A program made the position numbers and the translations under genes. The notes under the pieces were generated by a model. It saw nothing but the letters and a program-made list of their open reading frames with translations. It was not told the origin of the DNA and did no database searches. From a virus (lineage: Duplodnaviria > Heunggongvirae > Uroviricota > Caudoviricetes), in the IMG/VR virus record IMGVR_UViG_3300037743_000091: a stretch of DNA of 64,000 nt, one strand, 5' to 3'. Below, piece after piece: positions 2,048 to 59,667 of this stretch; the first letter of the stretch is position 1, and every line of letters begins with the position of its first letter.

Positions 2048-2254
2048 TCAGCACCTGGACGGGGGTGTCTCGTTCTTGCCGACACCCTTCAAGACCTGCT
2101 TCTTCCGGTAGAGCGTCACGTCTTCATACTGACCGCACGCCCGACAAATCTTAATCGGCGCACCGCGCCGCTTTGTGAGATGGGAGTTGATCGGGGTCCC
2201 GTACTGTTTGGTATCACACCCGGGACACGGGTCGAGTTCGTGAATACCAGGCAT
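2048..2254 (-). CDS. Small zinc-ribbon protein (68 aa)
   Basis: ATG 2254 with AAGGAG RBS. CPGC ... CRAC four-Cys motif. Confidence 0.5.
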   Translation of the reverse strand: MPGIHELDPCPGCDTKQYGTPINSHLTKRRGAPIKICRACGQYEDVTLYRKKQVLKGVGKNETPPSRC

Positions 2255-2256
2255 GG

Positions 2257-2577
2257 CTACTCCTTGATCTGACGGACGTACTTGACCGGCCCCCGGTACC
2301 CGTTGGCGTGCAGGGCCGTGACGATTCCTCGGGTCCAGCCCTTCCCGCGCGGAGTCGGGGGACACTCCACAACGTCCCCCTCCTTCACCGGGAACCGACA
2401 ACCGTAGGTGAACTCGTTGGTTGTGCTGTGGCCAAAGTCGGCCAGGTGGGGCAGATCGAGCAGAACGGTAATCCGGTCATCATCCGGCCGCGTGCGTTCG
2501 TCCGCCTCTATGACGTCGAGGGCGCTCACGATCTGCGCGAAGCGCTCCTCGACGTTTTCTTCCATCTGCGTCGGCAT
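2257..2577 (-). CDS. Hypothetical protein (106 aa)
   Basis: ATG lies 1 nt after the sulfotransferase stop (tight coupling). Continuous coding potential. Confidence 0.5.
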   Translation of the reverse strand: MPTQMEENVEERFAQIVSALDVIEADERTRPDDDRITVLLDLPHLADFGHSTTNEFTYGCRFPVKEGDVVECPPTPRGKGWTRGIVTALHANGYRGPVKYVRQIKE

Positions 2578-2578
2578 C

Positions 2579-3193
2579 TTAGGTATATCCAAACCTTTCG
2601 GCTCGTGCTCGAATCAGTGCCCCGTCAGGGTGGTTATCGATGTCCTCCCGGGTTGGCCCGTTGGACCGGAGTGCGGGACTGTTGTGGTTGACCCGAGTAC
2701 CCAAGGCATCCATGACCTTGCGTACTTGTTGAAGTGGTGACGTTGAGTCAGTCAGGAATCCCACGGCGCGCTGAACCGTGAGTGCATCCGCTTCTACATG
2801 GAGGATGTAATCTCCCCGTATTTCCATTGGCTCGTCCCACAGAGCAGCCCAACGGATTGCGCGTCCGAGCCGGTCCGAGGGGATTGTGATGTCCGGGCGA
2901 TGGCGATGCACGAACGCCCCGTGTGGATGATCAAGCTGACCAAGGAACGGGCGTTCTGCTGCTGAACGGGCTACCTCGTAAGGATCGCGCACCATGCGCA
3001 ATACCCGAGTTTCCTTGGGAAGGCTCTCCAGAAAGGGAACGGCGTGCCACGCCGATTCCGGAACCCGCAGGGGCCCCGATGAGACTGGACTGAACTGGTT
3101 CTCGTGGCGGGTGCGGAAGCCCAGGTCCGTCAGGAGCCGGTGAGCCCACGTCGTTCCTGAGCGACCGCACCCAGAGATGAGGAACGGGGTCAC
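2579..3193 (-). CDS. Sulfotransferase-family protein (PAPS-dependent)
   Basis: N-terminal 5-prime-PSB-like P-loop ISGCGRSGTTW. GTG start overlaps the upstream stop (GTGA). 204 aa. Confidence 0.6.
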   Translation of the reverse strand: MTPFLISGCGRSGTTWAHRLLTDLGFRTRHENQFSPVSSGPLRVPESAWHAVPFLESLPKETRVLRMVRDPYEVARSAAERPFLGQLDHPHGAFVHRHRPDITIPSDRLGRAIRWAALWDEPMEIRGDYILHVEADALTVQRAVGFLTDSTSPLQQVRKVMDALGTRVNHNSPALRSNGPTREDIDNHPDGALIRARAERFGYT

Positions 3194-3369
3194 TGCCGCC
3201 GGTCCAGTTCCGCCTGAACCCGGGCGCGCTGCCTGAGCACTTCCGCGCGCTGGGTATCAGTGAGCTTGGTCCCGAGCACCCGGTTCAACTGCTTTCGCCA
3301 CCCGTCGAGAGTGGCGACCGTTGCTGTACTGAGGGTCGCGGTCTTGACCTTGTTGGTAGCGTCGTTCAT
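3190..3369 (-). CDS. Hypothetical small protein (59 aa), not in the ORF track
   Basis: ATGA overlap with the stop of 3366..3917 and GTGA overlap with the sulfotransferase start. Read manually. Confidence 0.4.
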   Translation of the reverse strand: MNDATNKVKTATLSTATVATLDGWRKQLNRVLGTKLTDTQRAEVLRQRARVQAELDRRQ

Positions 3370-3917
3370 CGTTCCTGGGTTCCCTTCATCTTGATCTTCT
3401 GGGCTTCGCCGATGGCCTGGTACACAGCGTCCAGGAGTTCCCGGAGTTCGTAGGTCTCCAGGACGTTTCGATCGGCAGTCTCCGTGCTCCTCATCGCCCG
3501 AATGGCCTCTTCTGGGGTGATCCCAAAGTCCTGGGGGTCCGGGACGAATTCCCGCACGTCTTCCTCACGGACCGCGAGAAGGCTTTCCGGCTGCTGTACG
3601 AAGGGAGCGAAGTAGAAGGTTCCGGTCAGCCCTTCGATCCACGTTCCCTTCACTTGACGCCCCTTAAGGAGGACACTTCCCCGCTCTCCAGGCTCACGTG
3701 CAGGGAGTTCCCGCGTACCCCCGACGAACTTCCAGCCTCCCGAGGTACAAGCAGTCGGGATGCCCCCGCCGGACATCGCGGGGAGTTCGAGGTGCGGTCC
3801 ACCGGAACGACAATCCCGGTGCTTTCCGGTCACCTGAACACCACTCTTGGTGAGAGTGATCGAGTCCCCATCCCGGACCTTCTTCGGGTCTGTAATGGTT
3901 ACCGTTCGTGCAGTCAT
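3366..3917 (-). CDS. Hypothetical protein (183 aa)
   Basis: ATG 3917 with GGAGGA RBS. ATGA overlap with the glycosyltransferase stop. Confidence 0.5.
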   Translation of the reverse strand: MTARTVTITDPKKVRDGDSITLTKSGVQVTGKHRDCRSGGPHLELPAMSGGGIPTACTSGGWKFVGGTRELPAREPGERGSVLLKGRQVKGTWIEGLTGTFYFAPFVQQPESLLAVREEDVREFVPDPQDFGITPEEAIRAMRSTETADRNVLETYELRELLDAVYQAIGEAQKIKMKGTQER

Positions 3918-4996
3918 GAGAGGTTCCTCCTTCGATTCACTGCGCGTTCCCACGCGTTGGCCCATTCTTCGGCTCGTGCCGAAATCGCCAAGGGACGGAC
4001 CTGGTTGATGAGTTCTGTGCGATAGTCGTTTCGGGCCTCACGCAAAGTACGCGTGACATCCACCTGCGCCTTCAAGTTCAGGTACCACTCCCGAGGATCG
4101 CTAGCCATACGCAATCCAGAAGTCTTACTCAACTCCCGGTTGGCGGGTGTCGGGGAGGCTACGACAAGAGCCCCCACGGCTCGGTACTCCAGGGCCTTTA
4201 GTGCGCTCTTGGCCTTGTTGAAGTGGTTGTCCACCAGGGGAACCATCGCTACGTCGGTGCCCTGGAGGGCTTCGTGGTACTCCTGGAGCGGTACCGGCCC
4301 GGACTCCGGTAGGAGTCGATCCTGTGGAATTCCCAGGGCCTCGGCAGCCCATTCATGATGTCCCACGATCTTGACGAACACGTCGGGATCTTCCGAGAGG
4401 ACGCGTTGAAGAGAGTCCCCTACCGCGCTCAGATCTCCGGCGTGACTCGCCTGAACACCGGACCAGCCCACGATCACGGCCCGTTCGTCCTCGGGACCAG
4501 TGTCAGGACTACCCGAAGCGAAAGCAGCGTCCGGGAGCCCGTTGACCAGCTTCTCGACGCGCCCGTGCTTCCCGTACCGCTGAGCCAGGGCATCGGTAGT
4601 AACGGTGACTAGATCAGCCTTCTTACACGCCTCGTCCAGGTGGGACCAGTGATGCGTCTGAGTCTTGTTCCAGTACACCCATGACCCGTTATCCCGTGGA
4701 ATAGCGTGCAGGGCGTCGTCCACGTCCACGACAACCGCAACGCCGTTCTTCTGGAATGCCCTTACCAACTCGACTTGAGTTGGAGAACCGACGCGCTGCA
4801 TCACAACGAGGTCCAATCCCTTCGGGTTGACTCCCCTGATCACAATGCCTCGGCTGCTCCTACCGATCTTGATAGATCCTGGCTTGTACTTCTCCACGGT
4901 CCACTCAGGACGAGCCTCTGCTACCACGACAGACGGCCAGATCAGACGAAAGTGACCGCAGGCCCCGACATCGTCGGGAAGAATCGCGACTCTCAC
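3914..4996 (-). CDS. Putative glycosyltransferase (GT-B-like)
   Basis: N-terminal MRVAILPDDVGACGHF Rossmann-like start typical of GT1/GT4. 360 aa. GTG start overlaps the upstream stop. Confidence 0.45.
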   Translation of the reverse strand: MRVAILPDDVGACGHFRLIWPSVVVAEARPEWTVEKYKPGSIKIGRSSRGIVIRGVNPKGLDLVVMQRVGSPTQVELVRAFQKNGVAVVVDVDDALHAIPRDNGSWVYWNKTQTHHWSHLDEACKKADLVTVTTDALAQRYGKHGRVEKLVNGLPDAAFASGSPDTGPEDERAVIVGWSGVQASHAGDLSAVGDSLQRVLSEDPDVFVKIVGHHEWAAEALGIPQDRLLPESGPVPLQEYHEALQGTDVAMVPLVDNHFNKAKSALKALEYRAVGALVVASPTPANRELSKTSGLRMASDPREWYLNLKAQVDVTRTLREARNDYRTELINQVRPLAISARAEEWANAWERAVNRRRNLS

Positions 4997-17081: not shown

Positions 17082-17153
17082 GCTGGTCTGGCTGATCGGT
17101 TAGGTGCTCGCCTGCAAAGCGAGATCAAGCGGGTTCGAGTCCCGCCACCAGTT
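17082..17153 (+). tRNA. tRNA-Cys(GCA), tentative; D-arm atypical
   Basis: T-arm GCGGG-TTCGAGT-CCCGC. Anticodon arm CTCGC-CTGCAAA-GCGAG. Acceptor 6/7 paired. Confidence 0.4.
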
Positions 17154-17154
17154 C

Positions 17155-17226
17155 GGCCCGTTCGTCCAGCGGTCAGGATTCCGGACCTTCACTCCGGCGA
17201 CAGGGGTTCGACTCCCCTACGGGCTA
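17155..17226 (+). tRNA. tRNA-Glu(TTC), with C at position 33
   Basis: Acceptor GGCCCGT/ACGGGCT. D-arm GTCC..GGAT. Anticodon arm CCGGA-CCTTCAC-TCCGG. T-arm AGGGG-TTCGACT-CCCCT. Confidence 0.5.
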
Positions 17227-17227
17227 C

Positions 17228-17299
17228 GCGGTATTGGTCTAGTGGTTAAGGCACCAGGCTTCCACCCTGGAGACCCGGGTTCGATTCCCGGATACCGCT
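17228..17299 (+). tRNA. tRNA-Gly(TCC)
   Basis: Acceptor GCGGTAT/ATACCGC. Anticodon arm CCAGG-CTTCCAC-CCTGG. T-arm CCGGG-TTCGATT-CCCGG. Confidence 0.75.
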
Positions 17300-17300
17300 C

Positions 17301-17373
17301 GTCGCGTTCGTCTAGTTGGCCAGGACGCCGGTCCCTCACTCCGGAAACACGGGTTCGAATCCCGTACGCGGTA
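17301..17373 (+). tRNA. tRNA-like gene with an atypical, apparently 9-nt anticodon loop; identity unresolved
   Basis: Acceptor GTCGCGT/ACGCGGT. D-arm GTCT..AGGA. T-arm ACGGG-TTCGAAT-CCCGT. Anticodon region GCCGG-TCCCTCACT-CCGG. Confidence 0.4.
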
Positions 17374-17383
17374 CTGTCGAGAA

Positions 17384-45934: not shown

Positions 45935-46014
45935 CACGCTCCATACCCTCATGGCTCACGTCATGGGGGTTGGAGTGTGGCAGATCGGCTGCTACCTCAC
46001 CGATGGAGGAAAAA

Positions 46015-46457
46015 TGGGAATCAGGATGTCCAAGCGCGGTCTGGACCTGTGGACCGAGGCGCTGGAGAGTGGTAAGTACCCCCAGGGTGAAGGGTGGCTG
46101 TGCCAGATCAGCGGGGAGGACGAGGGGAAGGCCGAGTGGTGCTGTCTTGGCGTTCTCTGTGACGTCGCGATCAAGGACGGTCTCCAGCTCGAACAGGAGA
46201 CTGGGCGGTGTCACGATGAGTGTGGCGACGACGCTCATTCTCCGGTGGTCAAGTTCGCCGGATACGACGCGACCTTGCCTCCCGAAGTTCGCGACCACTT
46301 CGACTTCGAGCAGGTCGTAGAAGGTTTCGGTGGGGCACACGAGTACATCAGCATCCACAAGCTGATCAAGTGGAACGACTCCAGCCTCTCCCACGAGCAC
46401 AAGACCTTCCCGGAGATCGCCGCGAAGCTCCGCGAATTCGTGGAAGTCATCGACTGA
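46015..46457 (+). CDS. CCLGVLC-motif protein, paralog B (147 aa)
   Basis: GGAGGAAAA RBS. Tandem duplicate of 45527..45934, including the conserved leader GACRCGCTCCATACCCTCA. Confidence 0.5.
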
Positions 46458-46513
46458 CCCACGCCGGACTCAAGTACGCGTCCCCCACCAATAAGAAAGG
46501 AAAAATCCCACCC

Positions 46514-46630
46514 GTGGAATGCATCGGCTGGCTCCTGGTCATCTTCTGCGCCTACGTTCTCGCGCAGGATGACATTTCCGCATTTCTTGCCCGTAGGCGA
46601 GCTGACAAGAATCGCCGTCGCAACTCCTGA
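46514..46630 (+). CDS. Possible TM micropeptide (38 aa)
   Basis: GTG 8 nt after AAGAAAGGAAAAA. VECIGWLLVIFCAYVLA helix. Confidence 0.3.
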   Translation: MECIGWLLVIFCAYVLAQDDISAFLARRRADKNRRRNS

Positions 46631-46647
46631 AAGGACCGGCAGCACGC

Positions 46648-46794
46648 ATGGATTCACTCCTGGAAACTCTGGGCCTCATCGCTATGATTCTGGCCGCTCC
46701 CGTCGCCATTCTTCTGCTCCACCACGGAGGTGACCTGCTCGACGCGATCGCTACCCGTATCCGGGGGAACAGGAAGGACAACTCCGATGACTAA
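46648..46794 (+). CDS. Small membrane protein (48 aa), not in the ORF track
   Basis: Read manually: MDSLLETLGLIAMILAAPVAILLLHHGG ... Confidence 0.35.
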   Translation: MDSLLETLGLIAMILAAPVAILLLHHGGDLLDAIATRIRGNRKDNSDD

Positions 46795-47065
46795 GTGGGA
46801 CCCGGCGCTCACCCCTGCACAGCGGGCCAAGCTCGATCAGCACGTCACCTACCTGCGCGAGATCGGCCAGGAAGAAGCCAAGAAACGGGCTCAGAGCGCT
46901 CTGGACGATCTCGCACGCAGCGATGATCTCGGGGCTCTCGTGGGCTGGCTTGTAGCCATCGAAGAGGCGTTCCACGCCCCGGCTACCTGGTCGTGGGAGG
47001 ACGAGGGAGGCCACTGGCACGCCACCGTGACTCTCGAACGTCTCACCCCCGACTCAAGTACGTGA
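46787..47065 (+). CDS. Hypothetical protein (92 aa)
   Basis: ATG overlapping the upstream gene end. Confidence 0.45.
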   Translation: MTKWDPALTPAQRAKLDQHVTYLREIGQEEAKKRAQSALDDLARSDDLGALVGWLVAIEEAFHAPATWSWEDEGGHWHATVTLERLTPDSST

Positions 47066-47075
47066 AGGAGATCGG

Positions 47076-47306
47076 ATGATCTCAGATCGAAGCGAACTCA
47101 GTAAGGGGCGGGCGTGGTCGGCGGCGCTCCTGGCCTCCCTTGGATCAGCTTTCGGATGCTTCGAACTGGCTCAGGTGGAGGCACAGGAGTCCAGCTCCTT
47201 CCCGACCGCCTGGGCGATCATGACAGTGGTCTGGGCCCTGTCCGCCATCGCGTCATCCCTGAACGCCGGAGCGGCTTTCCGCGCTCATATCAAGAGCAAG
47301 CGCTGA
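47076..47306 (+). CDS. Membrane protein (76 aa)
   Basis: GAAGGAG RBS. Two hydrophobic helices. Confidence 0.45.
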   Translation: MISDRSELSKGRAWSAALLASLGSAFGCFELAQVEAQESSSFPTAWAIMTVVWALSAIASSLNAGAAFRAHIKSKR

Positions 47307-47308
47307 CT

Positions 47309-47512
47309 CACGTGCATCACGACCCCCAGGGTATCGAGACGGCTATCGCCAAGGCCCTGTTTCACGACCGCACGCATCCGTTACCGGAATTTCAGGAATG
47401 CGCGTGCGTGTGCCCGGAGTGTTTCACCACGCAGGAGACCGAGAGTAGAACGGACTGCATCTGTCCGGAATGTCCGTGCCATGAGTACGACGTTCCTCTC
47501 CATCCCACCTGA
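47309..47512 (+). CDS. Possible Cys-rich miniprotein (GTG start uncertain)
   Basis: CACVCPEC ... CICPECPCHEY. Confidence 0.3.
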   Translation, partial: HVHHDPQGIETAIAKALFHDRTHPLPEFQECACVCPECFTTQETESRTDCICPECPCHEYDVPLHPT

Positions 47513-47639
47513 CAATCCCTGATACATACGTACCACGCGATACCCCGTCACGCATCACGCGTCGGCGGGGTATTCGTGTACTCCCATCTGCCCCTGTACC
47601 CTCACCGTAGGACCCATCGGAACGTGTTACATAGGAGAC

Positions 47640-48068
47640 ATGAATATGGAGGGTCAGGAAGTAGTTCCAGAGGGAATGTCCCAAGATGGGCGGTGTACGG
47701 CGACCAGCAGAAAGACCGGTGATCGGTGCGGCGCGATGGCTATTGCGGGGGGCCGCGTATGCCGTTATCACGGGGGAGGAGCGCCCCAGATCAAGCGTAA
47801 GGCGCAGCTCCGACTTCTTGAATTGATCGAACCCGCGATTGCCACACTGGCGCGGGAAATGGCTACGGCGGAAAAGTCGGCCGACCGGCAACGCGCGGCG
47901 AACTCGATCCTCGACCGCGCGGGTATGCCCCGTACCCAGGTGGTGGACGCGGGTGTGGCGAAGGATCTGCTCATGGCCCGTATTACGTCGATGCGTAAGC
48001 GGGGCCTCGCCTCGAACCTGTCCGAGGACCACAAGGTCATTGAGCAGAAGAGCGGGGATGACGAATGA
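47640..48068 (+). CDS. Zinc-ribbon DNA-binding protein; possible small terminase subunit
   Basis: RCTATSRKTGDRCGAMAIAGGRVCRYHGGGAPQ motif plus helical basic C-terminal half. 142 aa, size and position compatible with TerS. Confidence 0.4.
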   Translation: MNMEGQEVVPEGMSQDGRCTATSRKTGDRCGAMAIAGGRVCRYHGGGAPQIKRKAQLRLLELIEPAIATLAREMATAEKSADRQRAANSILDRAGMPRTQVVDAGVAKDLLMARITSMRKRGLASNLSEDHKVIEQKSGDDE

Positions 48069-48220
48069 GTACAGCATTCATTGCCTGGTGTGACCTGTGT
48101 GAGGAAACCGGCCCGACGTTGAAGCGCAAGGCGGGTGGAGCCGTCCTCGAAGATCAGGACGAGTGGACTCGTTGGCTGATTGACCACGAGTACCACGGAT
48201 TGGAGTTGAGGCACGAGTGA
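48065..48220 (+). CDS. Small Cys-containing protein (51 aa), not in the ORF track
   Basis: ATGA and GTGA overlaps with both neighbours. WCDLCEE. Confidence 0.35.
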   Translation: MSTAFIAWCDLCEETGPTLKRKAGGAVLEDQDEWTRWLIDHEYHGLELRHE

Positions 48221-48693
48221 CGCCTACGCGAATCAAGACTCAAGCATCAGTTCAGGTATCCGAGCTATGGAAGTGTGGGTGCCCCACTCTCCCGGGTGCT
48301 CCGGTGGCGGCCTTCGAAGCGGAAATGGACCTGACGCTCCGGGGGAACCTGAGCCCAGATGCAACCCAGTTCATTAACTACTCAGTTGACTGCACGCTCG
48401 ACGGTCAGCAAGCACGGGATCTCTTGCCTCCGTACGCGGCAGTAGAAGCGTGGATTCCGGGACTCGCCTCGATTACTTGTGAAGGGTACGAGGACGAGGA
48501 CGAGGGCCCCACTAAGTACGGGTATCTACTGTTGCCCCGAGTTGATCACGGGGCGCTGACGTTCGACGGGAACAAGTGCAAGCACCTCGTCTCGCGGCTC
48601 TCCCCGGTCCCGTGGAATACCCACCTGTTCATGACGATGACCCCGTATGAATGGGAGACTCCGGATCTGAACTTTGATTATTCTCGGAGTTGA
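48217..48693 (+). CDS. Hypothetical protein (158 aa)
   Basis: GTGA overlap. Confidence 0.45.
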   Translation: MTPTRIKTQASVQVSELWKCGCPTLPGAPVAAFEAEMDLTLRGNLSPDATQFINYSVDCTLDGQQARDLLPPYAAVEAWIPGLASITCEGYEDEDEGPTKYGYLLLPRVDHGALTFDGNKCKHLVSRLSPVPWNTHLFMTMTPYEWETPDLNFDYSRS

Positions 48694-48842
48694 GATCGAC
48701 CCGACTCAATACTTCGACCATTCTCCTAGGCTCATGTGGCTCACGGAGGATCAGTATTGGACCTGGGTTTGCATGGTCTGCGAATCCGCGTGGCCTTGGT
48801 TCTGTGTAGAAATGCCCGAATACGAAGGAGAAGATTACGACG

Positions 48843-49235
48843 ATGACGAGTAAGGCGATTGTGACGCACGGTCAGGCATCCGGGGAGGGGCCGGGAATGC
48901 TGATCGTTCAGACCGGCGTTCGCGCAGATCGGGTCACCCTGGAGTCCTACGACGGTGACACCTCGAAGGTTCACCTGAATCATGGGGCTGTCCTGGACCT
49001 GATCCTGGCGCTTACCGGCGCTCTCGCGTACCGACCAACTCAGGTGGTCGATATCGCGGCCCCGGAGGGTTACGAGGTCGAGGAAGTGTCCGAGGCCAAG
49101 ACGGAGGCGACCGACCTTCTGCACCGTGAGGAAGGGGCCGACTACCTCACCCTCGGGAACGATATCGTCGAGAGCCTTATCGCCATGGGATGGCGTCCCA
49201 CGTTTTCCGAGGAAGGAAACAAGAATGACAAGTGA
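48843..49235 (+). CDS. Hypothetical acidic protein (130 aa)
   Basis: GAAGGAGAAG RBS. Confidence 0.45.
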   Translation: MTSKAIVTHGQASGEGPGMLIVQTGVRADRVTLESYDGDTSKVHLNHGAVLDLILALTGALAYRPTQVVDIAAPEGYEVEEVSEAKTEATDLLHREEGADYLTLGNDIVESLIAMGWRPTFSEEGNKNDK

Positions 49236-49881
49236 GACCCCTGCCCCGCGCCGGACTGAATACGTGCGCCTCGCTGAACTCAAGGTGAATCCCCGGAATC
49301 CCAAGAGTCACAACCTGGAGGAGATCGACGCCTCCGTAAAGCGGTTCGGGACCATCGACCCCATCGTCCGGGACGACCGAACCGGGTACATCATCTCTGG
49401 GCACGGGCGGCGCGAGACGTTGACCCAGATGTTCAAGCGAGGAGAAGATGCGCCGGACGGGGTGCTCGTGAACGAGTCCGGGGAGTGGATGGTCCCGGTA
49501 GGCGTGGGCTGGGCGAGCCGAACGGATGCCGAAGCCACGGCAGCTCTTATCGCCCTGAACAGGACGACGGAACTGGGAGGCTGGGTGGATGACTCGCTTC
49601 TTGATGCCCTGGATTCGCTCGACGACTACTCGGGTGTGGGTTTCACGGAAGAAGACATTGAGGCGCTTCGCGTACTCACTGATCGCGTCAACGAGGATGG
49701 CGGGGAGCGCGACCTGGACGCACTCGCTGAGGAATACGGAGCCGACGACGAGGAGAACCAAGCCAACGACGCCCTTCGCAAGGTGACGCTGAATCTCCCG
49801 CGCGTTCTGGCCGAGCAAGTGGAGGAGGCGTTGGCCGACCAGGACCACGCGGAGGTAGTGGCCCAGTGGCTCCGCCCGTAA
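49229..49881 (+). CDS. ParB-like nuclease-domain protein adjacent to DpdA (DpdB-like candidate)
   Basis: ParB N-terminal box (LKVNPRNPKSHNLEEIDASVKRFGTIDPIVRDDRTGYIISGHGRRETL). Acidic C-terminus. Immediately upstream of the TGT-like gene. Confidence 0.55.
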
Positions 49882-49920
49882 GTGATGGAGGACCCCGTCA
49901 AGTCACAGCGTTAGGAAGAC

Positions 49921-51192
49921 ATGACTCACAAGCGACCCTCTCTCTCCCCAGAGGATCGACGCCCAGATGGCCCGAGACAGGTGGTCGCCGTGAGTAAGTC
50001 GAGTAACGCGGACCCGAAGGTGTTCGCCTCGCCCCTGAACACTCCGAATGACGTCGTGACGCTCGACGAGCCCACGGACATCCTGTGCAGCTACCACTAC
50101 TTCTCGGACGTGGATATGGCGCAGGTTCACGGTTGGGGGACGCGCATCATCGGGGACTCCGGGGCGTTCTCGGCGGAGACCTCCGGCAAGCCGATCGATC
50201 GTGAAAAGTTTCACGAGTGGGCAGCTAAGTGGGGTGACTCCCTGTGGTGGGTAGCGTCTCTCGACGTGATCGGAGACGCCTCAGCAACTCGCCGGAATTG
50301 GGAAGCTGCCCAAGCAGACGGCCTGAACCTCGTACCGTCGATCCACTACGGCGCGACAGTTAGCGACCTGGATTGGTACGTGGAGCAGGGCGTGGACTTC
50401 CTGGGCCTCGGGGGAATGGTCGCGTACTCCTCGGAGAAGGCGCGCCTGATGCGCTGGCTTATTCCCCTCTTCCGGCACGTTCGTGATCACGCCCCGCACG
50501 TCCGGTTCCATGGCTGGGGGATCAGTCACCCTGAGTTGCTGGACAAGCTGCCCTTCTACTCCACGGACTCCTCCGGGTTCTCCTCTGCATTCAGGTTCGC
50601 TACCTTGCGTCTGTGGGACGTGGACAAGGCACGCTTCTACACGGTGGACCTGGACGGGAAGGAACCGGCGAAGTACGCCCGACTTCTGCGTGAGCACTAC
50701 GGGATTCACTGGAAGAAGATCGCCGTATCTACTCCGGAAGTGCGCCGCGATCTCGGGCGCGTTGCCGTGAAGGCCGTTCAGCATTATGGACGGTGGCTTC
50801 GTTCTCGTCAGCAGGTGACGGCTCCACAGTCGCTCGTGGATCGGCCGGGCGCTCCGCGCCCGGCCGTCGTAATGGCGTTCCCTGGAACTGCGCAGAATCT
50901 AGCTGTGCAGCCTCCCGACGAGGGTCCGTGGCAGGTGAGAAGTGCTATGGGTAGATCTAACTCTCAGGCTGTCCACCCAGAGGGAACGGGTAGTTTGCCA
51001 CGTTCTGGAGAAGATGGGCCCATGCAAGTTGCTGCCGTGGGTCGAGATACCAAGGTCTCTTTTGTGATCGACGGACCCCGAAAAGAAGGCCCTCACGCGG
51101 TAACCGCATTTGGTGTGGGGCAAGATGCAAAGGTGCTCATTCCTCCTCCGGATGAACACTGGCCGAAAACTAACTCAGGAGAAAATCAATGA
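49921..51192 (+). CDS. dpdA: tRNA-guanine-transglycosylase-like DNA 7-deazaguanine transferase (DpdA-like)
   Basis: 423 aa TGT-fold candidate (ILCSYHYF, GDSGAFS, DFLGLGGM). Directly followed by queC/queD/queE/folE. Confidence 0.55.
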   Translation: MTHKRPSLSPEDRRPDGPRQVVAVSKSSNADPKVFASPLNTPNDVVTLDEPTDILCSYHYFSDVDMAQVHGWGTRIIGDSGAFSAETSGKPIDREKFHEWAAKWGDSLWWVASLDVIGDASATRRNWEAAQADGLNLVPSIHYGATVSDLDWYVEQGVDFLGLGGMVAYSSEKARLMRWLIPLFRHVRDHAPHVRFHGWGISHPELLDKLPFYSTDSSGFSSAFRFATLRLWDVDKARFYTVDLDGKEPAKYARLLREHYGIHWKKIAVSTPEVRRDLGRVAVKAVQHYGRWLRSRQQVTAPQSLVDRPGAPRPAVVMAFPGTAQNLAVQPPDEGPWQVRSAMGRSNSQAVHPEGTGSLPRSGEDGPMQVAAVGRDTKVSFVIDGPRKEGPHAVTAFGVGQDAKVLIPPPDEHWPKTNSGENQ

Positions 51193-51878
51193 CCAATCAC
51201 CTCGTTGTTCTGTCCGGCGGAATGGACTCGACCGTTGCTCTCGCTACGGCGTTGCGGGATATGGAATTGGGGGACACCGTTCAGGCGGTTTCCTTCTCGT
51301 ACGGCCAGCGGCACAAGAAGGAATTGGCTGCCGCTCGGGCGGTGGTGGATTACTACACAGGCATTCCGTACCGCGTGATCTCGCTCGACGGGCTCATGTC
51401 CGGATCTGCGCTTCTGTACGAAAGCAACGTTCCGCAGGGGCACTACGCGGAAGAGAACATGAAGGCCACTGTGGTTCAGGGCCGTAACCTCTTGTTCGCC
51501 TCGGCTGCTGTTGCCGCGACCGGCTCTGACGGGGACGCGAAGGTGTGGCTGGGCGTTCACGCAGGTGATCACCCGATCTACCCGGACTGCCGACCGGAGT
51601 TCTGGAACCGTCTCCGGGGGCTGGTGTTCGACGCCTACGGGGTCACCCTGTACACGCCGTTCCTCGGCATTTCCAAGGCTGACGTCGCTAAGCGAGGAGC
51701 CGCGCTGAACGCCCCTCTCGGGCTCACCTGGTCGTGCTACGAGGGTGGCGAGATCCACTGCGGTAAGTGCGGGACGTGCGTCGAGCGCGCCGAGGCGTTC
51801 CACCTCGCCGGAGTTCCTGACCCGACGCCGTACGCGGATGCCGACTTCTGGCGGGAGGCTGTGAAGATCGTTGTCTGA
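51189..51878 (+). CDS. queC: 7-cyano-7-deazaguanine synthase
   Basis: PP-loop VVLSGGMDST. Zn-binding CYEGGEIHCGKCGTC at the C-terminus. ATGA overlap with dpdA-like stop. Confidence 0.85.
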   Translation: MTNHLVVLSGGMDSTVALATALRDMELGDTVQAVSFSYGQRHKKELAAARAVVDYYTGIPYRVISLDGLMSGSALLYESNVPQGHYAEENMKATVVQGRNLLFASAAVAATGSDGDAKVWLGVHAGDHPIYPDCRPEFWNRLRGLVFDAYGVTLYTPFLGISKADVAKRGAALNAPLGLTWSCYEGGEIHCGKCGTCVERAEAFHLAGVPDPTPYADADFWREAVKIVV

Positions 51879-52278
51879 TCCGACGATCGTCATAGGGTGC
51901 GGTGCCGCGAAGCTGGACCACGCGGCACCCGCCCGTGACCTGTACATCGGACAGCAATTCCGTATGGCGCGTCGAGTCGTTGAATATCGAGGATATGACT
52001 GGCTCATTCTGTCTGGGAGACATGGGCTTCTATATCCCGAGGAAATAATTCGCCCTTATGACTACTTCCTGGGTGATTCAGTTCCTCGAAGGAAACTACT
52101 AACGAGGCTACTTACTCTCCAACGGAGTAAATGGCCTAAGGGCCAGATTGAATCCTGGTGTGCTCGCAGGTATACCCAAGCCATGAAAGAAGCCCGAATG
52201 CCCGTGGTGTCTGCGCCCCTTGACGGATTGGGAGTCGGGGAGTGTTACACATGGCTCTACGAAAGGATGTTTGTATGA
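51871..52278 (+). CDS. Hypothetical protein within the queuosine-precursor cluster (TTG start uncertain)
   Basis: 135 aa. N-terminal IVIGCGAAK strand-like segment. Coupled to queD (ATGA). Confidence 0.4.
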   Translation: MSDPTIVIGCGAAKLDHAAPARDLYIGQQFRMARRVVEYRGYDWLILSGRHGLLYPEEIIRPYDYFLGDSVPRRKLLTRLLTLQRSKWPKGQIESWCARRYTQAMKEARMPVVSAPLDGLGVGECYTWLYERMFV

Positions 52279-52730
52279 CGCGCTCAGTCACCGTGAGGCA
52301 CAACTTCGAGACCGGGCATCGCCTCCCTCACCTGGAGGGCAAGTGCCAGTCCCTCCACGGGCATTCGTGGTGGGTAGAGGTCACGGTTCAGGCCCCGGGT
52401 GATCCGGGGATCGTGGTCGAGTTCGGCCCGTTCAAGAAGGCGATCCGCTCGTGGATCGATGACCACCTTGACCACGGGCTCATGCTCGGGCTGAACGATC
52501 CCCTACTTAAGACGCTCGCCGCGCACGGGAAGGTGTTCGCGTTCAGTGAGCATTACGGCGGCTGGCCGACCGTGGAGAACGTCGCCGGACTCCTGGCGGA
52601 GATCTCTCAGGACGCTCTCCGAACGTTCACCCGTGCGCATGATGCGCGTGTGGAGCGCGTGCGGGTGAGTGAGACCTCAGTGAACGCCGCTGAGTGGATC
52701 AACGACGCACCAAAGACGTGGGAGCGCTAA
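52275..52730 (+). CDS. queD: 6-carboxy-5,6,7,8-tetrahydropterin synthase
   Basis: HNFETGHRL ... CQSLHGHSW (Cys-x3-His-Gly-His). Confidence 0.85.
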   Translation: MTRSVTVRHNFETGHRLPHLEGKCQSLHGHSWWVEVTVQAPGDPGIVVEFGPFKKAIRSWIDDHLDHGLMLGLNDPLLKTLAAHGKVFAFSEHYGGWPTVENVAGLLAEISQDALRTFTRAHDARVERVRVSETSVNAAEWINDAPKTWER

Positions 52731-53401
52731 TGCATCTGAATATTTCAGAACATTTCTCCGGAACCATTCAAGGGGAGGGACGCTACGCCGGGCACCTTGC
52801 GTCCTTCCTGCGCGTGGCCGGATGCAACCTGACGTGCTCGTGGTGCGACAGTGCGTACACCTGGGATTGGGGCAAGTACGACCACGCCCAGGAAGTGCGG
52901 CAGATGGAGATCGAGGAGGTCTCCGACGTCGTGCGCCGGATGAAGGGGCGCATTGTCGTTACGGGAGGCGAGCCTCTTCTCCAGTCCGCAGGTCTCGGGT
53001 ACGTACTGAGCCGGTTTGCTGATACGCGTCTGTTCGATCTGGAGACGAACGGAACGCGACCTCTCGGGGCCACGCTGGGAATGTGGGCGTCAATCACGTG
53101 TTCACCGAAGGTCATTCCATCGGCCGATCAGGGAAACCTCGCCCGGCGCATTCACGCGGACATGATCAACTACGCGGACTTCAAGTTCGTGATCCGGGAC
53201 GGTGCCGACCTCGACGCTACGGACGCGTTTATCGAGGAACATGGGATTTCGCCCTCTCGGGTATGGCTCATGCCCGAGGGAACGAACGCTCAGACCATTA
53301 CCGACCGAACTCCGGCCGTGGCGAATGCCGCTGTGGACCGGGGTATGAACTTCTCCTCACGGCTGCACGTGTACGCCTGGGGCGACGAGAGGGGGCACTG
53401 A
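52730..53401 (+). CDS. queE: 7-carboxy-7-deazaguanine synthase (radical SAM)
   Basis: CNLTCSWCDS radical-SAM cysteine triad. TAATG overlap. Confidence 0.85.
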   Translation: MHLNISEHFSGTIQGEGRYAGHLASFLRVAGCNLTCSWCDSAYTWDWGKYDHAQEVRQMEIEEVSDVVRRMKGRIVVTGGEPLLQSAGLGYVLSRFADTRLFDLETNGTRPLGATLGMWASITCSPKVIPSADQGNLARRIHADMINYADFKFVIRDGADLDATDAFIEEHGISPSRVWLMPEGTNAQTITDRTPAVANAAVDRGMNFSSRLHVYAWGDERGH

Positions 53402-53949
53402 TGTCCGTCAATCAATACGCCGTAGCCCAGGCGGTACGGGATCTTCTGCACGCAGTAGGGATCGATCCGGACGACTCCCCGCACACCTCGGATACCCCGA
53501 ATCGGGTAGCGCGTTTCTGGGCAGAATTCATGGACTACGACCCGGGGACCGTGGCTACGACCTTCCCCGTGGAGCAGGTAGACCAAATGGTGGTCGTCTC
53601 CGGGATCGATACGTGGAGCATGTGCGCTCACCACCTCCTGCCATTCTCAGCACGGGTCACCATCGGGTATATCGCAGATGACCAGGTACTCGGGCTGTCC
53701 AAGTTCGCGCGCATCGCGCACGCGGAAGCGCACCAACCCAATACGCAGGAGGGGCTGGTCGCCAGGATCGCTGACACGGTTACCGAGGTGACGGGGACGA
53801 AGGACGTTGCGGTCAAGGCCACGGGAATGCACCTGTGCATGGCTATGCGCGGGATCAAGACCCCGGCGGAAATGACCACCTCGGTAACTCGTGGAGCATT
53901 CCGGGATCAGCCGGAAACTCGGGCCGAATGGCTTTCTCTGACACGATGA
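53401..53949 (+). CDS. folE: GTP cyclohydrolase I
   Basis: SMCAHHLLPF (CEHH-type zinc motif) and ... GLSKFARI ...; TGATG overlap with queE. Confidence 0.8.
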   Translation: MSVNQYAVAQAVRDLLHAVGIDPDDSPHTSDTPNRVARFWAEFMDYDPGTVATTFPVEQVDQMVVVSGIDTWSMCAHHLLPFSARVTIGYIADDQVLGLSKFARIAHAEAHQPNTQEGLVARIADTVTEVTGTKDVAVKATGMHLCMAMRGIKTPAEMTTSVTRGAFRDQPETRAEWLSLTR

Positions 53950-53953
53950 GTCC

Positions 53954-55564
53954 GTGATGGACGAATACACCGATGCGGAACTTGCCGAACTGGTAGCGGG
54001 GCTGAGTCCGGAAGAGATCGAAGAGCTGATCGATGATCTTCCGGACCCAGCCGCGCGCGCCTTGCTGAATATCCTTCCGGCATCGCGGGAAGACCTCCCG
54101 GCAACGGCCTTGGCGCAGGCACTCGAACTCGACGACGGATACCGCGTCCGCGCGCACCTGGAGTACCTGTCCGACCGCCTCGCCAAGGCCGTTGAGGACG
54201 TGGAGAACGGCGAGAGCCGAAACCTCGTAATCTCCATGCCTCCGCGTATGGGGAAGTCCACCCTGGCGTCTCAGTACCTCCAGGTGTGGCTCTTGCGTCA
54301 ACATCCGGAGTGGAAGATCGGTATGGTCTCCCACGACTCCTCCTTGGCCGTCACCTGGGGTCGTGCGGTGCGCCGGTTCGCTGAGAACAGGCCGGAACTA
54401 GGTATCCGAATCGCGCCGGACGCCGGGGCCGCGCAGGAGTGGGAAACCAAGGAACACGGTGGCATCCTTGCGCGCTCCGTAGGTGGGTCGATTACCGGGC
54501 GTGGGTTCAAGGTGCTCCTGATCGACGATCCGGTCAAGGACTTCGTGACGGCCCACTCCGAGGTCTTCCGAAAAAATCTGTGGGACTGGTGGCTGTCCAC
54601 GGCATTGACCCGCCTCGAACCCCCGTCGTTGACGATCGTGATCGGTACGCGCTGGCACGAGGATGATTTCATTGGGCGTCTTCTGTCGGACGACTACGAG
54701 GGCGACCCGAACGAGTGGGAAGTCATTTCCTTCCCCGCGCTGGCCGATGAGGAATCCGATGTCCTAGGGCGTGAACTCGACGAACCCCTGATCTCTCCCC
54801 TGATCGAGGAGACCCCGGAAGAAGCGGTTCAGCGCTGGGAGAAGATTCAAAAGGACGTCGGCTCTTACACGTGGTCCGCTCTTTATCAGCAAAAGCCCTC
54901 AGCACCTAAGGGGGCAATCTTCAATGTGGGTTGGTGGCGTTACTGGACCACGAACCCGAAGAAGGTTTCCGATGACGGTCGAGTGGTGTTGTTCGATCCG
55001 GACGACCACGCCGGTACCTGGGTGGAATCTTGGGACTGCGCGTTCAAGGACACCAAGGCGTCTGACTACGTGGTGGGTCAACGGTGGGTACGTCGAGAGG
55101 CGCAGATCTTCCTAGCTCAACAGGTGCGGGGACGCTGGTCGTTCACCAAGACCCTCCCCCAGATGGAAGCGTTCTCCGCGCCGTGGGTGGTCGCGCGATT
55201 GGTCGAGGACAAGGCGAACGGCACGGCGATTCTGGACACCATGCGCCGGAGGTTGACGGGCCTTATCCCGATTAATCCTCGGGAGAGCAAGGAGGCACGC
55301 GCTCGTGCTATCTCTCCCCTCGTCGAGGCGGGTAACGTCTACATTCCCCACCCGAGCGAACCAGGCTGTGAATGGGTCACGGACCTGATCAATGAGACGA
55401 GGAACTTTCCCACAGGTGCGCACGATGACCAGGTGGACGCACTCAGTCAGGCATTGTTCCGTCTGCGCCTCGTCGAAGTCACCCGTAAGACGCGATCTCC
55501 AAACGCCATGGGTCAACGTGTTCCTCAACGGGCTACGAGTGGATCACTACGCCGGACTCGGTGA
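53954..55564 (+). CDS. Terminase large subunit
   Basis: Walker A-like PPRMGKST, Walker B LLIDDPVKD, C-terminal RNaseH-like nuclease region. 536 aa. Confidence 0.85.
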   Translation: MMDEYTDAELAELVAGLSPEEIEELIDDLPDPAARALLNILPASREDLPATALAQALELDDGYRVRAHLEYLSDRLAKAVEDVENGESRNLVISMPPRMGKSTLASQYLQVWLLRQHPEWKIGMVSHDSSLAVTWGRAVRRFAENRPELGIRIAPDAGAAQEWETKEHGGILARSVGGSITGRGFKVLLIDDPVKDFVTAHSEVFRKNLWDWWLSTALTRLEPPSLTIVIGTRWHEDDFIGRLLSDDYEGDPNEWEVISFPALADEESDVLGRELDEPLISPLIEETPEEAVQRWEKIQKDVGSYTWSALYQQKPSAPKGAIFNVGWWRYWTTNPKKVSDDGRVVLFDPDDHAGTWVESWDCAFKDTKASDYVVGQRWVRREAQIFLAQQVRGRWSFTKTLPQMEAFSAPWVVARLVEDKANGTAILDTMRRRLTGLIPINPRESKEARARAISPLVEAGNVYIPHPSEPGCEWVTDLINETRNFPTGAHDDQVDALSQALFRLRLVEVTRKTRSPNAMGQRVPQRATSGSLRRTR

Positions 55565-59173: not shown

Positions 59174-59246
59174 TTCCTCGGTAGCTCAACAGGTAGAGCA
59201 CTGCCCTGTTAAGGCATTGGTTGTAGGTTCGAGTCCTGCTCGGGGA
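59174..59246 (+). tRNA. tRNA-Asn(GTT)
   Basis: Acceptor TCCTCGG/TCGGGGA. D-arm GCTC..GAGC. Anticodon loop CTGTTAA. T-arm GTAGG-TTCGAGT-CCTGC. Confidence 0.75.
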
Positions 59247-59249
59247 GCT

Positions 59250-59336
59250 TGGTAAGGCCAGCCGATGGGCGGCGGCAACTGTCTTGAAAACAGTCTGCGG
59301 GTGATACCGCGTGTGGGTTCGACTCCCACCCTTACC
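59250..59336 (+). tRNA. tRNA-Ser(TGA) with long variable arm
   Basis: Acceptor GGTAAGG/CCTTACC. Anticodon arm ACTGT-CTTGAAA-ACAGT. 19 nt variable arm. T-arm GTGGG-TTCGACT-CCCAC. Confidence 0.7.
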
Positions 59337-59340
59337 GCTC

Positions 59341-59421
59341 TGCTGTTCACGCGACTGGTGTCGCACGCGGACTGTAAATCCGTTGCCCTTGGGCGTGCCA
59401 GGTTCGATCCCTGGGAGCAGC
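59341..59421 (+). tRNA. tRNA-Tyr(GTA) with long variable arm
   Basis: Acceptor GCTGTTC/GAGCAGC. D-arm GCGA..TCGC. Anticodon loop CTGTAAA. T-arm CCAGG-TTCGATC-CCTGG. Confidence 0.7.
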
Positions 59422-59425
59422 ACCG

Positions 59426-59500
59426 AGCACCTATGGGGAAGTCAGGAGTTCCCGTCTCCCTGTCAAGGAGAAGATCGCCGGTTCAAATCCGGTTAGGTGC
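59426..59500 (+). tRNA. tRNA-Asp(GTC)
   Basis: Acceptor GCACCTA/TAGGTGC. Anticodon arm TCTCC-CTGTCAA-GGAGA. T-arm GCCGG-TTCAAAT-CCGGT. Confidence 0.7.
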
Positions 59501-59508
59501 GCTTTTCA

Positions 59509-59580
59509 TTCCGCATTCGTCCAACGGGCAGGACCCCGGATTTTGGTTCCGGAAATCTAGGTTCGAATCCTAGATGCGGA
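59509..59580 (+). tRNA. tRNA-Gln(TTG)
   Basis: Acceptor TCCGCAT/ATGCGGA. D-arm GTCC..GGAC. Anticodon arm CCGGA-TTTTGGT-TCCGG. T-arm CTAGG-TTCGAAT-CCTAG. Confidence 0.75.
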
Positions 59581-59667
59581 ACTGTTATTGCCCATTTCGG
59601 TTACCCTGGCCCTAGTTGTGATACGTGGCTGGCGATCGGGCCGCACGGGACCTCCAAGGAGGAAACC

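Follow-up and report, generated by a model that had tools for sequence, protein, structure and literature searches.

A probable Rosebush-type operon for 7-deazaguanine DNA modification, with a ParB-like partner and a DUF6884 protein, in a tailed phage

Introduction

The window analyzed here is a 64,000-nucleotide stretch of DNA from a tailed phage (Caudoviricetes; IMG/VR record IMGVR_UViG_3300037743_000091). Next to its terminase gene, it carries genes for preQ0 synthesis together with a DpdA-like gene, a ParB-like gene and a small gene of 135 codons. The locus raises the question of whether the phage replaces guanines in its own DNA with a 7-deazaguanine, and of what the two additional proteins contribute. 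An earlier note made from the sequence had recognized a complete preQ0 pathway and a DpdA candidate just upstream of the terminase, and all of these genes were found, on the + strand. It is highly probable that the operon performs deazaguanine DNA modification. Our full reading, to which we assign a probability of about 0.6, is a Rosebush-type operon that swaps guanines in the phage's own DNA for 7-deazaguanine, with a ParB-like partner and tailoring by a DUF6884 protein.

Organization of the operon

The genes are tightly packed on the + strand in the order ParB-like, DpdA, QueC, 135-aa gene, QueD, QueE and FolE (49225..53949), followed by TerL. The intergenic spacing along the operon runs -11, +39, -4, -8, -4, -1, -1 and +4 nt. 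The ParB-like gene begins with an ATG at 49225; position 49229, from which it had previously been drawn, is out of frame. The QueD start is joined to the preceding 135-aa gene by an ATGA overlap, and the FolE ATG is at 53401, not 53398, overlapping the QueE stop. The terminase large subunit TerL (53954..55564, + strand; Terminase_6C 1.4e-15, Terminase_6N 1e-6) starts 4 nt past FolE in the same direction, at the position of Rosebush gp7 and Megan gp10. Promoter-like and terminator-like matches in the operon showed no excess over chance, which, together with the tight junctions, fits a single transcription unit.

This arrangement had been regarded as unusual, a view that is not borne out. In Mycobacterium phage Rosebush (subcluster B2), gp1-gp7 follow the same order of ParB-like protein, DpdA, QueC, QueD, QueE, FolE and TerL, and by this sequence comparison the cluster itself is of a known type. 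The DNA of the two phages has only about 71% similarity, in short pieces. In Rosebush, QueC and QueD are adjacent with nothing between them, whereas the window has the 135-aa gene there. Rosebush DNA contains dPreQ0 at 28% of G and 9 dADG per 10^6 nt (Hutinet et al. 2019, PMC6884629).

Synthesis of preQ0

The formation of preQ0 from GTP by FolE, QueD, QueE and QueC is an established pathway in which FolE performs the first step and QueC the last. All four enzymes are present with family signatures in Pfam. The 7-cyano-7-deazaguanine synthase QueC (51189..51878; PF06508 8e-51) scores 152.1 against the TIGR00364 cut-off of 150.3, and its translation has a C-terminal Cys cluster, CX8CX2CX2C. The 6-carboxytetrahydropterin synthase QueD (52275..52730; PF01242 2.3e-26) has the CxxxHGH motif. 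The radical SAM enzyme QueE, 7-carboxy-7-deazaguanine synthase (52730..53401; PF04055, PF13353), matches NCBIfam QueE models at 2e-23, under their cut-offs, and carries the radical-SAM CX3CX2C motif as CNLTCSWC. The GTP cyclohydrolase I FolE (53401..53949; PF01227 1.4e-47) scores 171.6 against the NF006826 cut-off of 162. The four enzymes are predicted to convert GTP to preQ0.

The DpdA-like transglycosylase

The 423-aa protein encoded at 49921..51192 on the + strand is assigned by homology to the Rosebush-type clade of phage DpdA enzymes, which are DNA guanine transglycosylases with a TGT fold. It matches phrog_7068 (4.5e-74) and is 39% identical to Rosebush gp2 (phmmer 3e-68). It has the TIM-barrel fold of TGT and DpdA, with a core at residues 40-310 and a low-confidence tail with GP-repeats at residues 312-423, and in structure it matches the DNA enzyme DpdA best, ahead of TGT. 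Profile searches gave no match to Pfam TGT, PADLOC DpdA, NCBIfam or PDB models. Residues D79, F83, D115, H142, H197 and D216 are invariant among 37-44 homologues, with D79, F83, D115 and D216 unchanged across 44, and the same residues are found in Rosebush DpdA. The bacterial DpdA active site has the pattern Asp95/Phe99/Asp130/Asp256 (PMC10164549), to which D79, F83, D115 and D216 appear to correspond, the last two by spacing and motif only. An hhalign alignment places IGDSGAFS of the window protein on LTDSGGFQ of E. coli Tgt, with D79 opposite Tgt D89. The window protein also retains a conserved His that DpdA2 lacks.

The earlier note had made its DpdA assignment depend on the TGT zinc and active-site residues. 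The Asp, Phe and His positions held, but the zinc site did not. C56 is the only Cys of the protein, and a CxCxxC zinc site after D216 is absent in 37 of 37 clade members, including Rosebush DpdA. Unlike bacterial DpdA and canonical TGT, the window DpdA lacks both the structural zinc site CXCX2CX22H and the insertion Ins8. Since the zinc site is missing clade-wide, including from the enzyme of a phage whose DNA is modified, its absence does not refute the function.

A role of the cluster in tRNA modification was historically proposed for Rosebush and Dp-1 (PMC5699537). Under that proposal, the TGT-like enzyme would modify tRNAs with preQ0 or a queuosine precursor, the phage's own tRNAs among them, and tRNA-Asn(GTT), tRNA-Tyr(GTA) and tRNA-Asp(GTC) do occur in the window at 59175..59502. 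These three Q-family tRNAs among nine are not above chance, however, and neither QueA, QueG or QueF nor a PUA/tRNA-binding domain was found with Pfam and NCBIfam. The homologous Rosebush cluster modifies DNA, and the top structural match of the window enzyme is itself a DNA enzyme. Modification of tRNA is thus a highly improbable function of the cluster.

The ParB-like partner

The ParB-like gene (49225..49881, + strand) encodes a protein of 218 aa, about 24 kDa, with a ParB-superfamily N-terminal domain, an ISGHGRRETL box and an acidic C-terminal half. It matches phrog_620 (4e-27), phrog_498, a methyltransferase N-terminus (3e-24), and the N-terminal region of PADLOC MTase_II (5e-9). The MTase_II model matches 23 of 26 homologues; Pfam ParB_N matches 13 of the 26 but not the window protein itself. 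In sequence, the protein resembles, and is probably related to, the N-terminal ParB module of type II DNA methyltransferases. It is this module of the ParB-methyltransferase fusions (phrog_498, PADLOC MTase_II PDLC03229) that it matches, although in the window the module forms a protein of its own, and the enzyme next to it is a transglycosylase instead of a methyltransferase.

Gene neighborhood suggests that this protein works with DpdA. The comparison covered 62 viral loci from IMG/VR that carry a DpdA of this clade. In 60 of them the gene immediately 5' of dpdA encodes a ParB-like homologue, and the remaining two are truncated by the contig end, so that the pairing holds in all 60 loci assessable for the upstream gene. 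These 60 loci cover 11 DpdA groups (<50% identity) and a GC range of 43-76%. For this clade, the earlier view of DpdA as usually unaccompanied in phage clusters is therefore wrong. The window has the same adjacency, as for DpdB, with a gap of 39 nt. The pairing extends to DpdAs outside this clade, those of MementoMori (phrog_6059) and Fusobacterium phage phiFN37, and a fusion of ParB with N6_N4_MTase adjoins the ParB-DpdA pair in three loci (L035, L036 and L065).

That the ParB-like ORF might act as a DpdB was proposed earlier in the CRB2 paper (PMC6392294), and the earlier note had likewise suggested a bacterial-type DpdB partner. A partnership with DpdA is likely, but orthology with DpdB was considered and rejected. 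Compared with bacterial DpdB (PMC10164549), the protein is half the size (the DpdB monomer is about 40-47 kDa) and its 218 residues do not include the C-terminal alpha-helical SspE-like domain. The DGQQR/DGQHR NTPase motif of the DndB/SspE subgroup is absent, the family consensus being AGNHTLxAA. No DpdB or DndB model in PADLOC matches the window protein, and DpdB, DndB and SspE models match none of the 26 homologues. The box-II arginine is missing from most family members, which makes NTPase activity doubtful. The DpdB label is thus an analogy, not a statement of orthology.

The main competing explanation is a plain dPreQ0 system like that of Rosebush, in which modification depends on DpdA and the four preQ0 enzymes alone and the ParB-like and DUF6884 proteins are incidental. 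The ParB-like protein would then serve packaging, partition or nuclease work at the head of a terminase operon. Rosebush has both proteins, ParB-like gp1 (30% identical to that of the window) and DUF6884 gp8, and plain dPreQ0. DpdAs from other clades (phages 9g, nt-1 and VH7D) need no partner to insert preQ0 in E. coli (PMC6884629, PMC10516641), and the window has no recognizable small terminase between FolE and TerL. On the other hand, the ParB-dpdA adjacency persists in very divergent loci, many without a nearby terminase and some with a separately annotated TerS. Functional coupling of the ParB-like protein to DpdA therefore seems likely to us; a strict, DpdB-style requirement for it is possible, with the odds slightly against.

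The DUF6884 protein

The 135-aa gene (51871..52278, + strand, TTG start) lies between que genes, as the earlier note had described, and its family, then called unknown, can be assigned. The protein scores 88.5 bits with PF21818 (DUF6884), whose gathering cut-off is 30, with E 5.6e-25 over profile positions 3-134 of 135, and it has the YaaA 'cantaloupe' fold in a prediction with pLDDT 97. Its CxxxK and LSAxxG motifs are C10-GAA-K14 and L47-S48-G-R-H-G52, and the C, K, S and G are unchanged in 19 of 19 cluster-associated homologues; Pfam finds nothing in these homologues beyond DUF6884/YaaA. Bacterial DpdC, described as a DUF6884/DUF328 protein (PMC11888242, PMC12839542), converts dPreQ0-DNA to dADG-DNA. 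PADLOC DpdC models match the window protein at 2.4e-6 and 7e-4, with residues 16-89 on positions 50-123 of 312 (74 positions), and match 18 of the 19 homologues (best 1e-9); a generic small DUF6884 model, PDC-M57A, outscores them on the window protein (3e-13). Membership in the family of DpdC, by Pfam and by the PADLOC models, makes plausible the earlier suggestion that this gene specifies the final derivative. An archaeosine synthase-like amidinotransferase (ArcS C1 domain) was rejected as a candidate: the protein lacks the PC-X3-KPY-X2-S-X2-H motif and has only the C-x3-K spacing in common with that domain (GCGAAKLDHAAPAR).

Under the plain dPreQ0 explanation, the DUF6884 gene would be a small mobile gene that serves general DNA repair or some other purpose and is present here by chance. 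The family is indeed widespread away from deazaguanine clusters and common among phages without deazaguanine genes. The proteins most closely related to that of the window (P0124, 48% identity) are encoded on actinophage contigs that have neither DpdA nor ParB nor que genes. Yet DUF6884 lies inside 17 of 62 ParB-DpdA clusters, at two different positions and in 6 of 11 DpdA groups, while tblastn matches occur in just 149-189 of 50,697 phage records. This enrichment of roughly 100-fold, with deazaguanine association in three bacterial phyla, argues against chance, and the plain dPreQ0 explanation is somewhat unlikely. Also in favor of a tailoring role, the phage Megan has Gat-QueC, and its gene at the DUF6884 position no longer has the motifs.

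Two phages with DpdA of another clade (phrog_887) show similar associations. In phiFN37, the ParB-like gene is directly 5' of dpdA, as in the window, and is followed in order by DpdA, DUF6884 and a preQ0/queuosine-precursor transporter, with DUF6884 inside the deazaguanine module; phiFN37 salvages the base, whereas the window cluster synthesizes it. Acinetobacter phage HD01 has DUF6884, QueE, QueC, QueD, FolE and DpdA, with DUF6884 embedded as in the window; its 10-kb locus includes no ParB-like gene. DNA analysis of phiFN37 or HD01 was not found in the literature searched.

The DUF6884 protein could instead assist DpdA at the DNA level, by base-flipping or lesion-binding. In that role it would offer target guanines to the enzyme, or protect or mend abasic sites left by hydrolysis of the covalent DpdA-DNA intermediate as about a quarter of all guanines were replaced. 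YaaA and YfjM bind DNA, and YfjM, which is predicted to flip a nucleotide, has been captured on abasic and RNA-base lesions (PMC11701544). Neither E. coli YaaA (PDB 5CAJ; PF03883), which is twice as long as the window protein, nor B. subtilis YfjM, a DUF6884 protein, is linked to deazaguanine genes. A helper accommodates the DUF6884 protein of Rosebush alongside high dPreQ0, as well as DUF6884 in phages without deazaguanine genes. However, DpdC, the sole biochemically defined relative in a deazaguanine system, is a hydratase dispensable for insertion (PMC10164549), and the invariant Cys-x3-Lys suggests catalysis over mere binding. A helper role is accordingly unlikely. The likeliest role of the protein remains that of a hydratase converting dPreQ0 to dADG, although this assignment is tentative. 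The main caveat for dADG is that Rosebush has a DUF6884 protein (gp8, on the opposite strand past TerL, with every invariant residue kept) and yet has dPreQ0 DNA. A further point against the hydratase role is that MED16, a phage containing dADG, lacks DUF6884.

Proposed mechanism and implications

The operon is probably a compact phage analogue of DpdA/B/C with dADG as its product. In this scheme, replacement of guanines would take place after replication, and the ParB-N-domain protein, a functional analogue of DpdB, would be the DNA-loading or targeting partner of DpdA. The zinc-less DpdA would swap G for preQ0 in double-stranded DNA, with D216 acting as the nucleophile and D79 as the general acid/base, by comparison with the mechanisms of bacterial DpdA and TGT. 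The DUF6884 protein may then bind the modified DNA, flip the inserted base into a Cys10/Lys14 pocket and, most likely, hydrate the dPreQ0 nitrile to the amide, dADG. Compared with the dpd island of Salmonella Montevideo, the phage counterparts of DpdA, DpdB and DpdC are each far smaller and more divergent, the DUF6884 protein having 135 aa against about 312 aa for DpdC and matching its models in part. The restriction genes dpdD-K of that island are absent here, and the modification level expected from the Rosebush example is hundreds of times above the bacterial one.

If this reading is true, the virion DNA would contain dADG or a mixture of dPreQ0 and dADG and would be resistant to many restriction enzymes. 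The ParB-like protein and the small DpdC-family protein are under-studied additions to such clusters, and they may govern how, and as what, the base is installed.

Organization of the gene cluster

Eight genes lie on the + strand from 49225 to 55564, with junctions of -11, +39, -4, -8, -4, -1, -1 and +4 nt, and they are read as a single transcription unit extending into the gene for the large terminase (TerL, 53954..55564). Promoter-like and terminator-like matches in the cluster were at or below chance level, and an Rfam scan returned nothing inside it. The first gene, encoding a ParB-like protein, runs from ATG 49225 to 49881; the start in the earlier note, 49229, is out of frame. A small correction also places the start of FolE at ATG 53401. 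The claim of a complete preQ0 pathway was borne out by Pfam and NCBIfam for QueC (51189..51878; PF06508, 8e-51; TIGR00364 above its cut-off), QueD (PF01242, 2e-26), QueE (radical SAM family, with a CX3CX2C motif) and FolE (PF01227, 1e-47; NF006826 above its cut-off). With all four enzymes confirmed, the route that leads from GTP to preQ0 is complete.

The arrangement had been presented as unusual, but it is shared. Rosebush gp1-gp7 have the same order (ParB-like, DpdA, QueC, QueD, QueE, FolE, TerL), Microbacterium phage Megan carries a close variant, and a 69-kb metagenomic contig carries the identical eight genes. Rosebush is the closest characterised system, from which the window differs by a DUF6884 gene inside the operon. 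At the nucleotide level, megablast of the cluster against phages gave no match, and blastn gave distant matches only. The cluster itself is ordinary and of a known kind; its points of interest are a ParB partner that never varies and an inserted gene of the DpdC family.

A small terminase was not recognisable between FolE and TerL (53949..53954) or just 5' of the ParB-like gene (46000..49225). The upstream ORFs 48843..49235 and 48217..48693 have no family match, and 47640..48068 matches phrog_3678 alone, a family of unknown function.

A probable ParB-like partner for DpdA

The association between the ParB-like gene and dpdA was surveyed in 63 IMG/VR loci with relatives of the window DpdA, whose ORFs were profile-searched. 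The loci form 11 groups by DpdA identity (50%), and their GC content ranges over 43-76%. A DpdA ORF is present in 62 of them; in 60 of these the ORF next upstream, on the same strand, is ParB-like, and in the remaining two the contig ends at dpdA. Many loci have no nearby terminase, and preQ0 genes are missing from several. Other DpdA clades show the pairing too, as in MementoMori (ParB-like, TGT-like of phrog_6059, TerS, TerL) and in Fusobacterium phage phiFN37. On this strong evidence of association, the ParB-like protein and DpdA are probably a functional pair.

A DpdB role for the ParB-like ORF was guessed earlier in the CRB2 genome paper (PMC6392294). ParB is nowhere mentioned in the main phage deazaguanine paper (PMC6884629), and the others consulted were not among the ParB-mentioning matches of a literature search. 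The suggestion of a bacterial-type DpdB did not survive comparison with the defining features of that protein, orthology to DpdB and DpdC being judged by PADLOC, Pfam and NCBIfam models. The DGQQR motif is replaced by SGHGRRETL (family consensus AGNHTLxAA), the protein is small (218 aa) and lacks a C-terminal domain of the SspE type, and DpdB and DndB models match none of 26 family members. Of the 26, 23 instead match a type II methyltransferase model in its N-terminal ParB module, and 13 match Pfam ParB_N. The box-II arginine is absent in most members, which makes NTP hydrolysis doubtful.

A ParB-methyltransferase fusion adjoins the ParB-DpdA pair in some loci. At 2222..3934 of locus L035, and also in L036 and L065, a 570-aa fusion of a ParB domain with an N6_N4 DNA methyltransferase lies just 5' of a separate ParB-like/DpdA pair, so that two different DNA-modifying enzymes, each served by its own ParB module, are neighbours. 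The ParB-like protein is probably a DNA-loading or targeting module, of a kind that base-flipping DNA-modification enzymes would use either fused, as in the methyltransferases, or in trans, as with DpdA.

A role of the ParB-like protein as the small terminase was rejected. In both MementoMori and Margaery another gene stands between dpdA and TerL, and in MementoMori it is annotated as TerS. The phiFN37 pair sits among DNA-metabolism genes in a 12-kb locus with no annotated terminase, and the ParB profile does not match the TerS of Orion.

A zinc-less DpdA

The 423-aa DpdA (49921..51192) has no Pfam, NCBIfam or PADLOC match. Sequence and profile searches of the PDB were empty, and structure prediction was therefore used. 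The protein matches phrog_7068, 'queuine tRNA-ribosyltransferase', at 4.5e-74 and is 39% identical to Rosebush gp2. An AlphaFold model built with 44 homologues is confident in its core, residues 40-310. Invariant among the homologues are D79 (in IGDSGAFS, with F83), D115, H142, H197 and D216-S-S, a pattern that matches Asp95/Phe99/Asp130/Asp256 of bacterial DpdA (PMC10164549). In hhalign, D79 falls on D89 of E. coli Tgt, within a local match of 26 columns between the DpdA profile and the single Tgt sequence.

The structural zinc site is absent: DpdA has one cysteine, and CxCxxC occurs in 0 of the 37 members of the clade, that of Rosebush among them. The protein therefore falls outside the bacterial DpdA family, but it may still be functional, since the DNA of Rosebush contains dPreQ0 at 28% of G (PMC6884629).

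Residues 312-423 (50854..51192) form a low-confidence C-terminal tail of about 110 residues, in which a (D/E)GPxxV...G repeat occurs three times. Homologues also have this tail and a near-invariant P367, a recurrence that suggests a peptide-interaction or DNA-contact region. Two tandem DpdA paralogues occur in several of the compared loci (L015/L061, L023, L044, L063 and L001, which is Megan), and in L044 and L063 the DUF6884 gene stands between the two. Such tandem genes are reminiscent of eukaryotic TGT, a heterodimer of a catalytic and a non-catalytic subunit.

About 5 kb 3' of the TGT-like gene cluster, the window carries a tRNA cluster (59175..59582) for Asn(GTT), Ser(TGA), Tyr(GTA), Asp(GTC) and Gln(TTG). 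In Q-proficient bacteria queuosine goes into four GUN-anticodon tRNAs, of which the cluster encodes three (Asn, Tyr and Asp); three of nine window tRNAs in this set is statistically unremarkable. Four further tRNA genes (Cys, Glu, Gly, Glu) abut at 17082..17374 with zero spacer nucleotides.

The DUF6884 protein

The 135-aa protein encoded at 51871..52278 belongs to Pfam DUF6884 (5.6e-25, full length), and its AlphaFold model has a pLDDT of 97. The CxxxK and LSAxxG motifs described by Pfam (PMC11701544) are present as C10-GAA-K14 and L47-S-G-R-H-G52. Nine residues (C10, K14, A21, Y25, S48, G52, Y63, Q84 and Y101) are kept in 19 of 19 cluster-associated proteins; Q84 is found in only 24 of 56 general relatives. 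A phmmer search against the PDB returned noise only.

Bacterial DpdC converts dPreQ0-DNA to dADG-DNA without the need for DpdA or DpdB (PMC10164549). It has been described as DUF328/PF03883 (PMC5699537, PMC12839542) and as matching DUF6884 (PMC11888242). PADLOC DpdC models match the window protein at 2.4e-6 and 18 of the 19 cluster-associated homologues (best 1e-9), covering only part of their roughly 312 positions, and a generic small model scores higher for the window protein. These matches place the protein in the family but stop short of making it a DpdC orthologue.

Of the 62 loci, 17, from 6 of 11 DpdA groups, have DUF6884 within the cluster, in the dpdA-queC or queC-queD slot; for comparison, about 0.3-0.4% of 50,697 phage records have tblastn matches. 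The order in phiFN37 is ParB-like, DpdA, DUF6884 and a queuosine-precursor transporter; in Acinetobacter phage HD01 it is DUF6884, QueE, QueC, QueD, FolE and DpdA. Together with the residues kept by the cluster-associated proteins and the Gat-QueC loci described below, these positions favour a function linked to the deazaguanine pathway, and tailoring of the base after its insertion is the simplest such function.

Variants of the gene were also seen. In Megan, which has a Gat-QueC fusion and two DpdA paralogues, gp6 (4064..4489) occupies the slot between QueC and QueD, has lost CxxxK and LSAxxG and has an HMM E-value of only 3e-4; the sole other Gat-QueC locus has no DUF6884. DUF6884 is also a domain of larger phage proteins (435-495 aa), C-terminal in gp117 of Streptomyces phage TurkishDelight (L074, 4116..5423) and internal in gp64 of Ponzi (L075, 4356..5843). 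The neighbourhood of the TurkishDelight gene includes two ParB-like genes, a methyltransferase gene and a gene with a glutamine-amidotransferase domain. The context in Caulobacter phage Kronos is uninformative, with hypothetical genes throughout and no DpdA.

The likeliest single reading, in which the protein is a dPreQ0-to-dADG hydratase, is held only tentatively because of several observations. Rosebush gp8 (L002, 6038..6508, minus strand, just past TerL), annotated 'gp8' only, is a DUF6884 protein (2.5e-15) that keeps every invariant residue, yet Rosebush DNA contains 96,530 dPreQ0 and only 9 dADG per 10^6 nt (PMC6884629). The closest relatives of the window protein, P0124 and P0126, are on contigs that lack deazaguanine genes or are too short to tell, so the window protein is not in an exclusively cluster-bound clade. 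The family is common in mycobacteriophages without the pathway. A scan of Pantoea phage MED16, which has trace dADG, found neither DUF6884 nor ParB-like genes, and DUF6884 therefore does not explain that trace. A role as a DNA-level helper or lesion-handling protein is somewhat less likely than the hydratase role, and an unrelated role is about as likely as the helper role.

A proposed mechanism and its implications

From these genes, folds, motifs and associations, we infer the steps of a mechanism in which the hydratase reading is retained. FolE, QueD, QueE and QueC would make preQ0. DpdA, with help from the ParB-like protein on DNA, would replace G with preQ0 by way of a covalent intermediate at Asp216. 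DUF6884 may then flip the inserted base, and Cys10/Lys14 could hydrate the nitrile to the amide by way of a thioimidate, in analogy to Cys enzymes that act on nitriles, giving dADG. The cluster would work like bacterial DpdA/DpdB/DpdC and uses the same three superfamilies, but the DUF6884 protein alone belongs at the family level, whereas DpdA and the ParB-like protein lack defining features of bacterial DpdA and DpdB. The clade may carry a miniaturised, independently diverged counterpart of the bacterial module, with a ParB-N-domain protein, shared with ParB-methyltransferase fusions, as the obligatory DNA-loading partner of a zinc-less DpdA, and DUF6884 as the long-sought dPreQ0-to-dADG enzyme of phages, acting on DNA through Cys-x3-Lys on a flipped base. 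We put the probability of this at roughly 0.3.

Deazaguanine modifications shield phage DNA from restriction enzymes and Cas9, and they affect its sequencing and cloning. Some phage DpdA clades reach about 30% replacement, whereas bacterial DpdA needs an ATPase partner; in the clade of the window DpdA, a ParB-like gene always precedes dpdA. The mechanism of phage dADG formation 'remains poorly explained', according to the MED16 paper; about a quarter of the clusters compared here contain a gene of the DpdC family, which is an obvious candidate for it. If the proposal is true, genomes with the DUF6884 gene would be expected to contain dADG and those without it dPreQ0. If the dADG prediction fails, as Rosebush hints that it might, a deazaguanine-linked role would still be assigned to DUF6884, a large family of unknown function.
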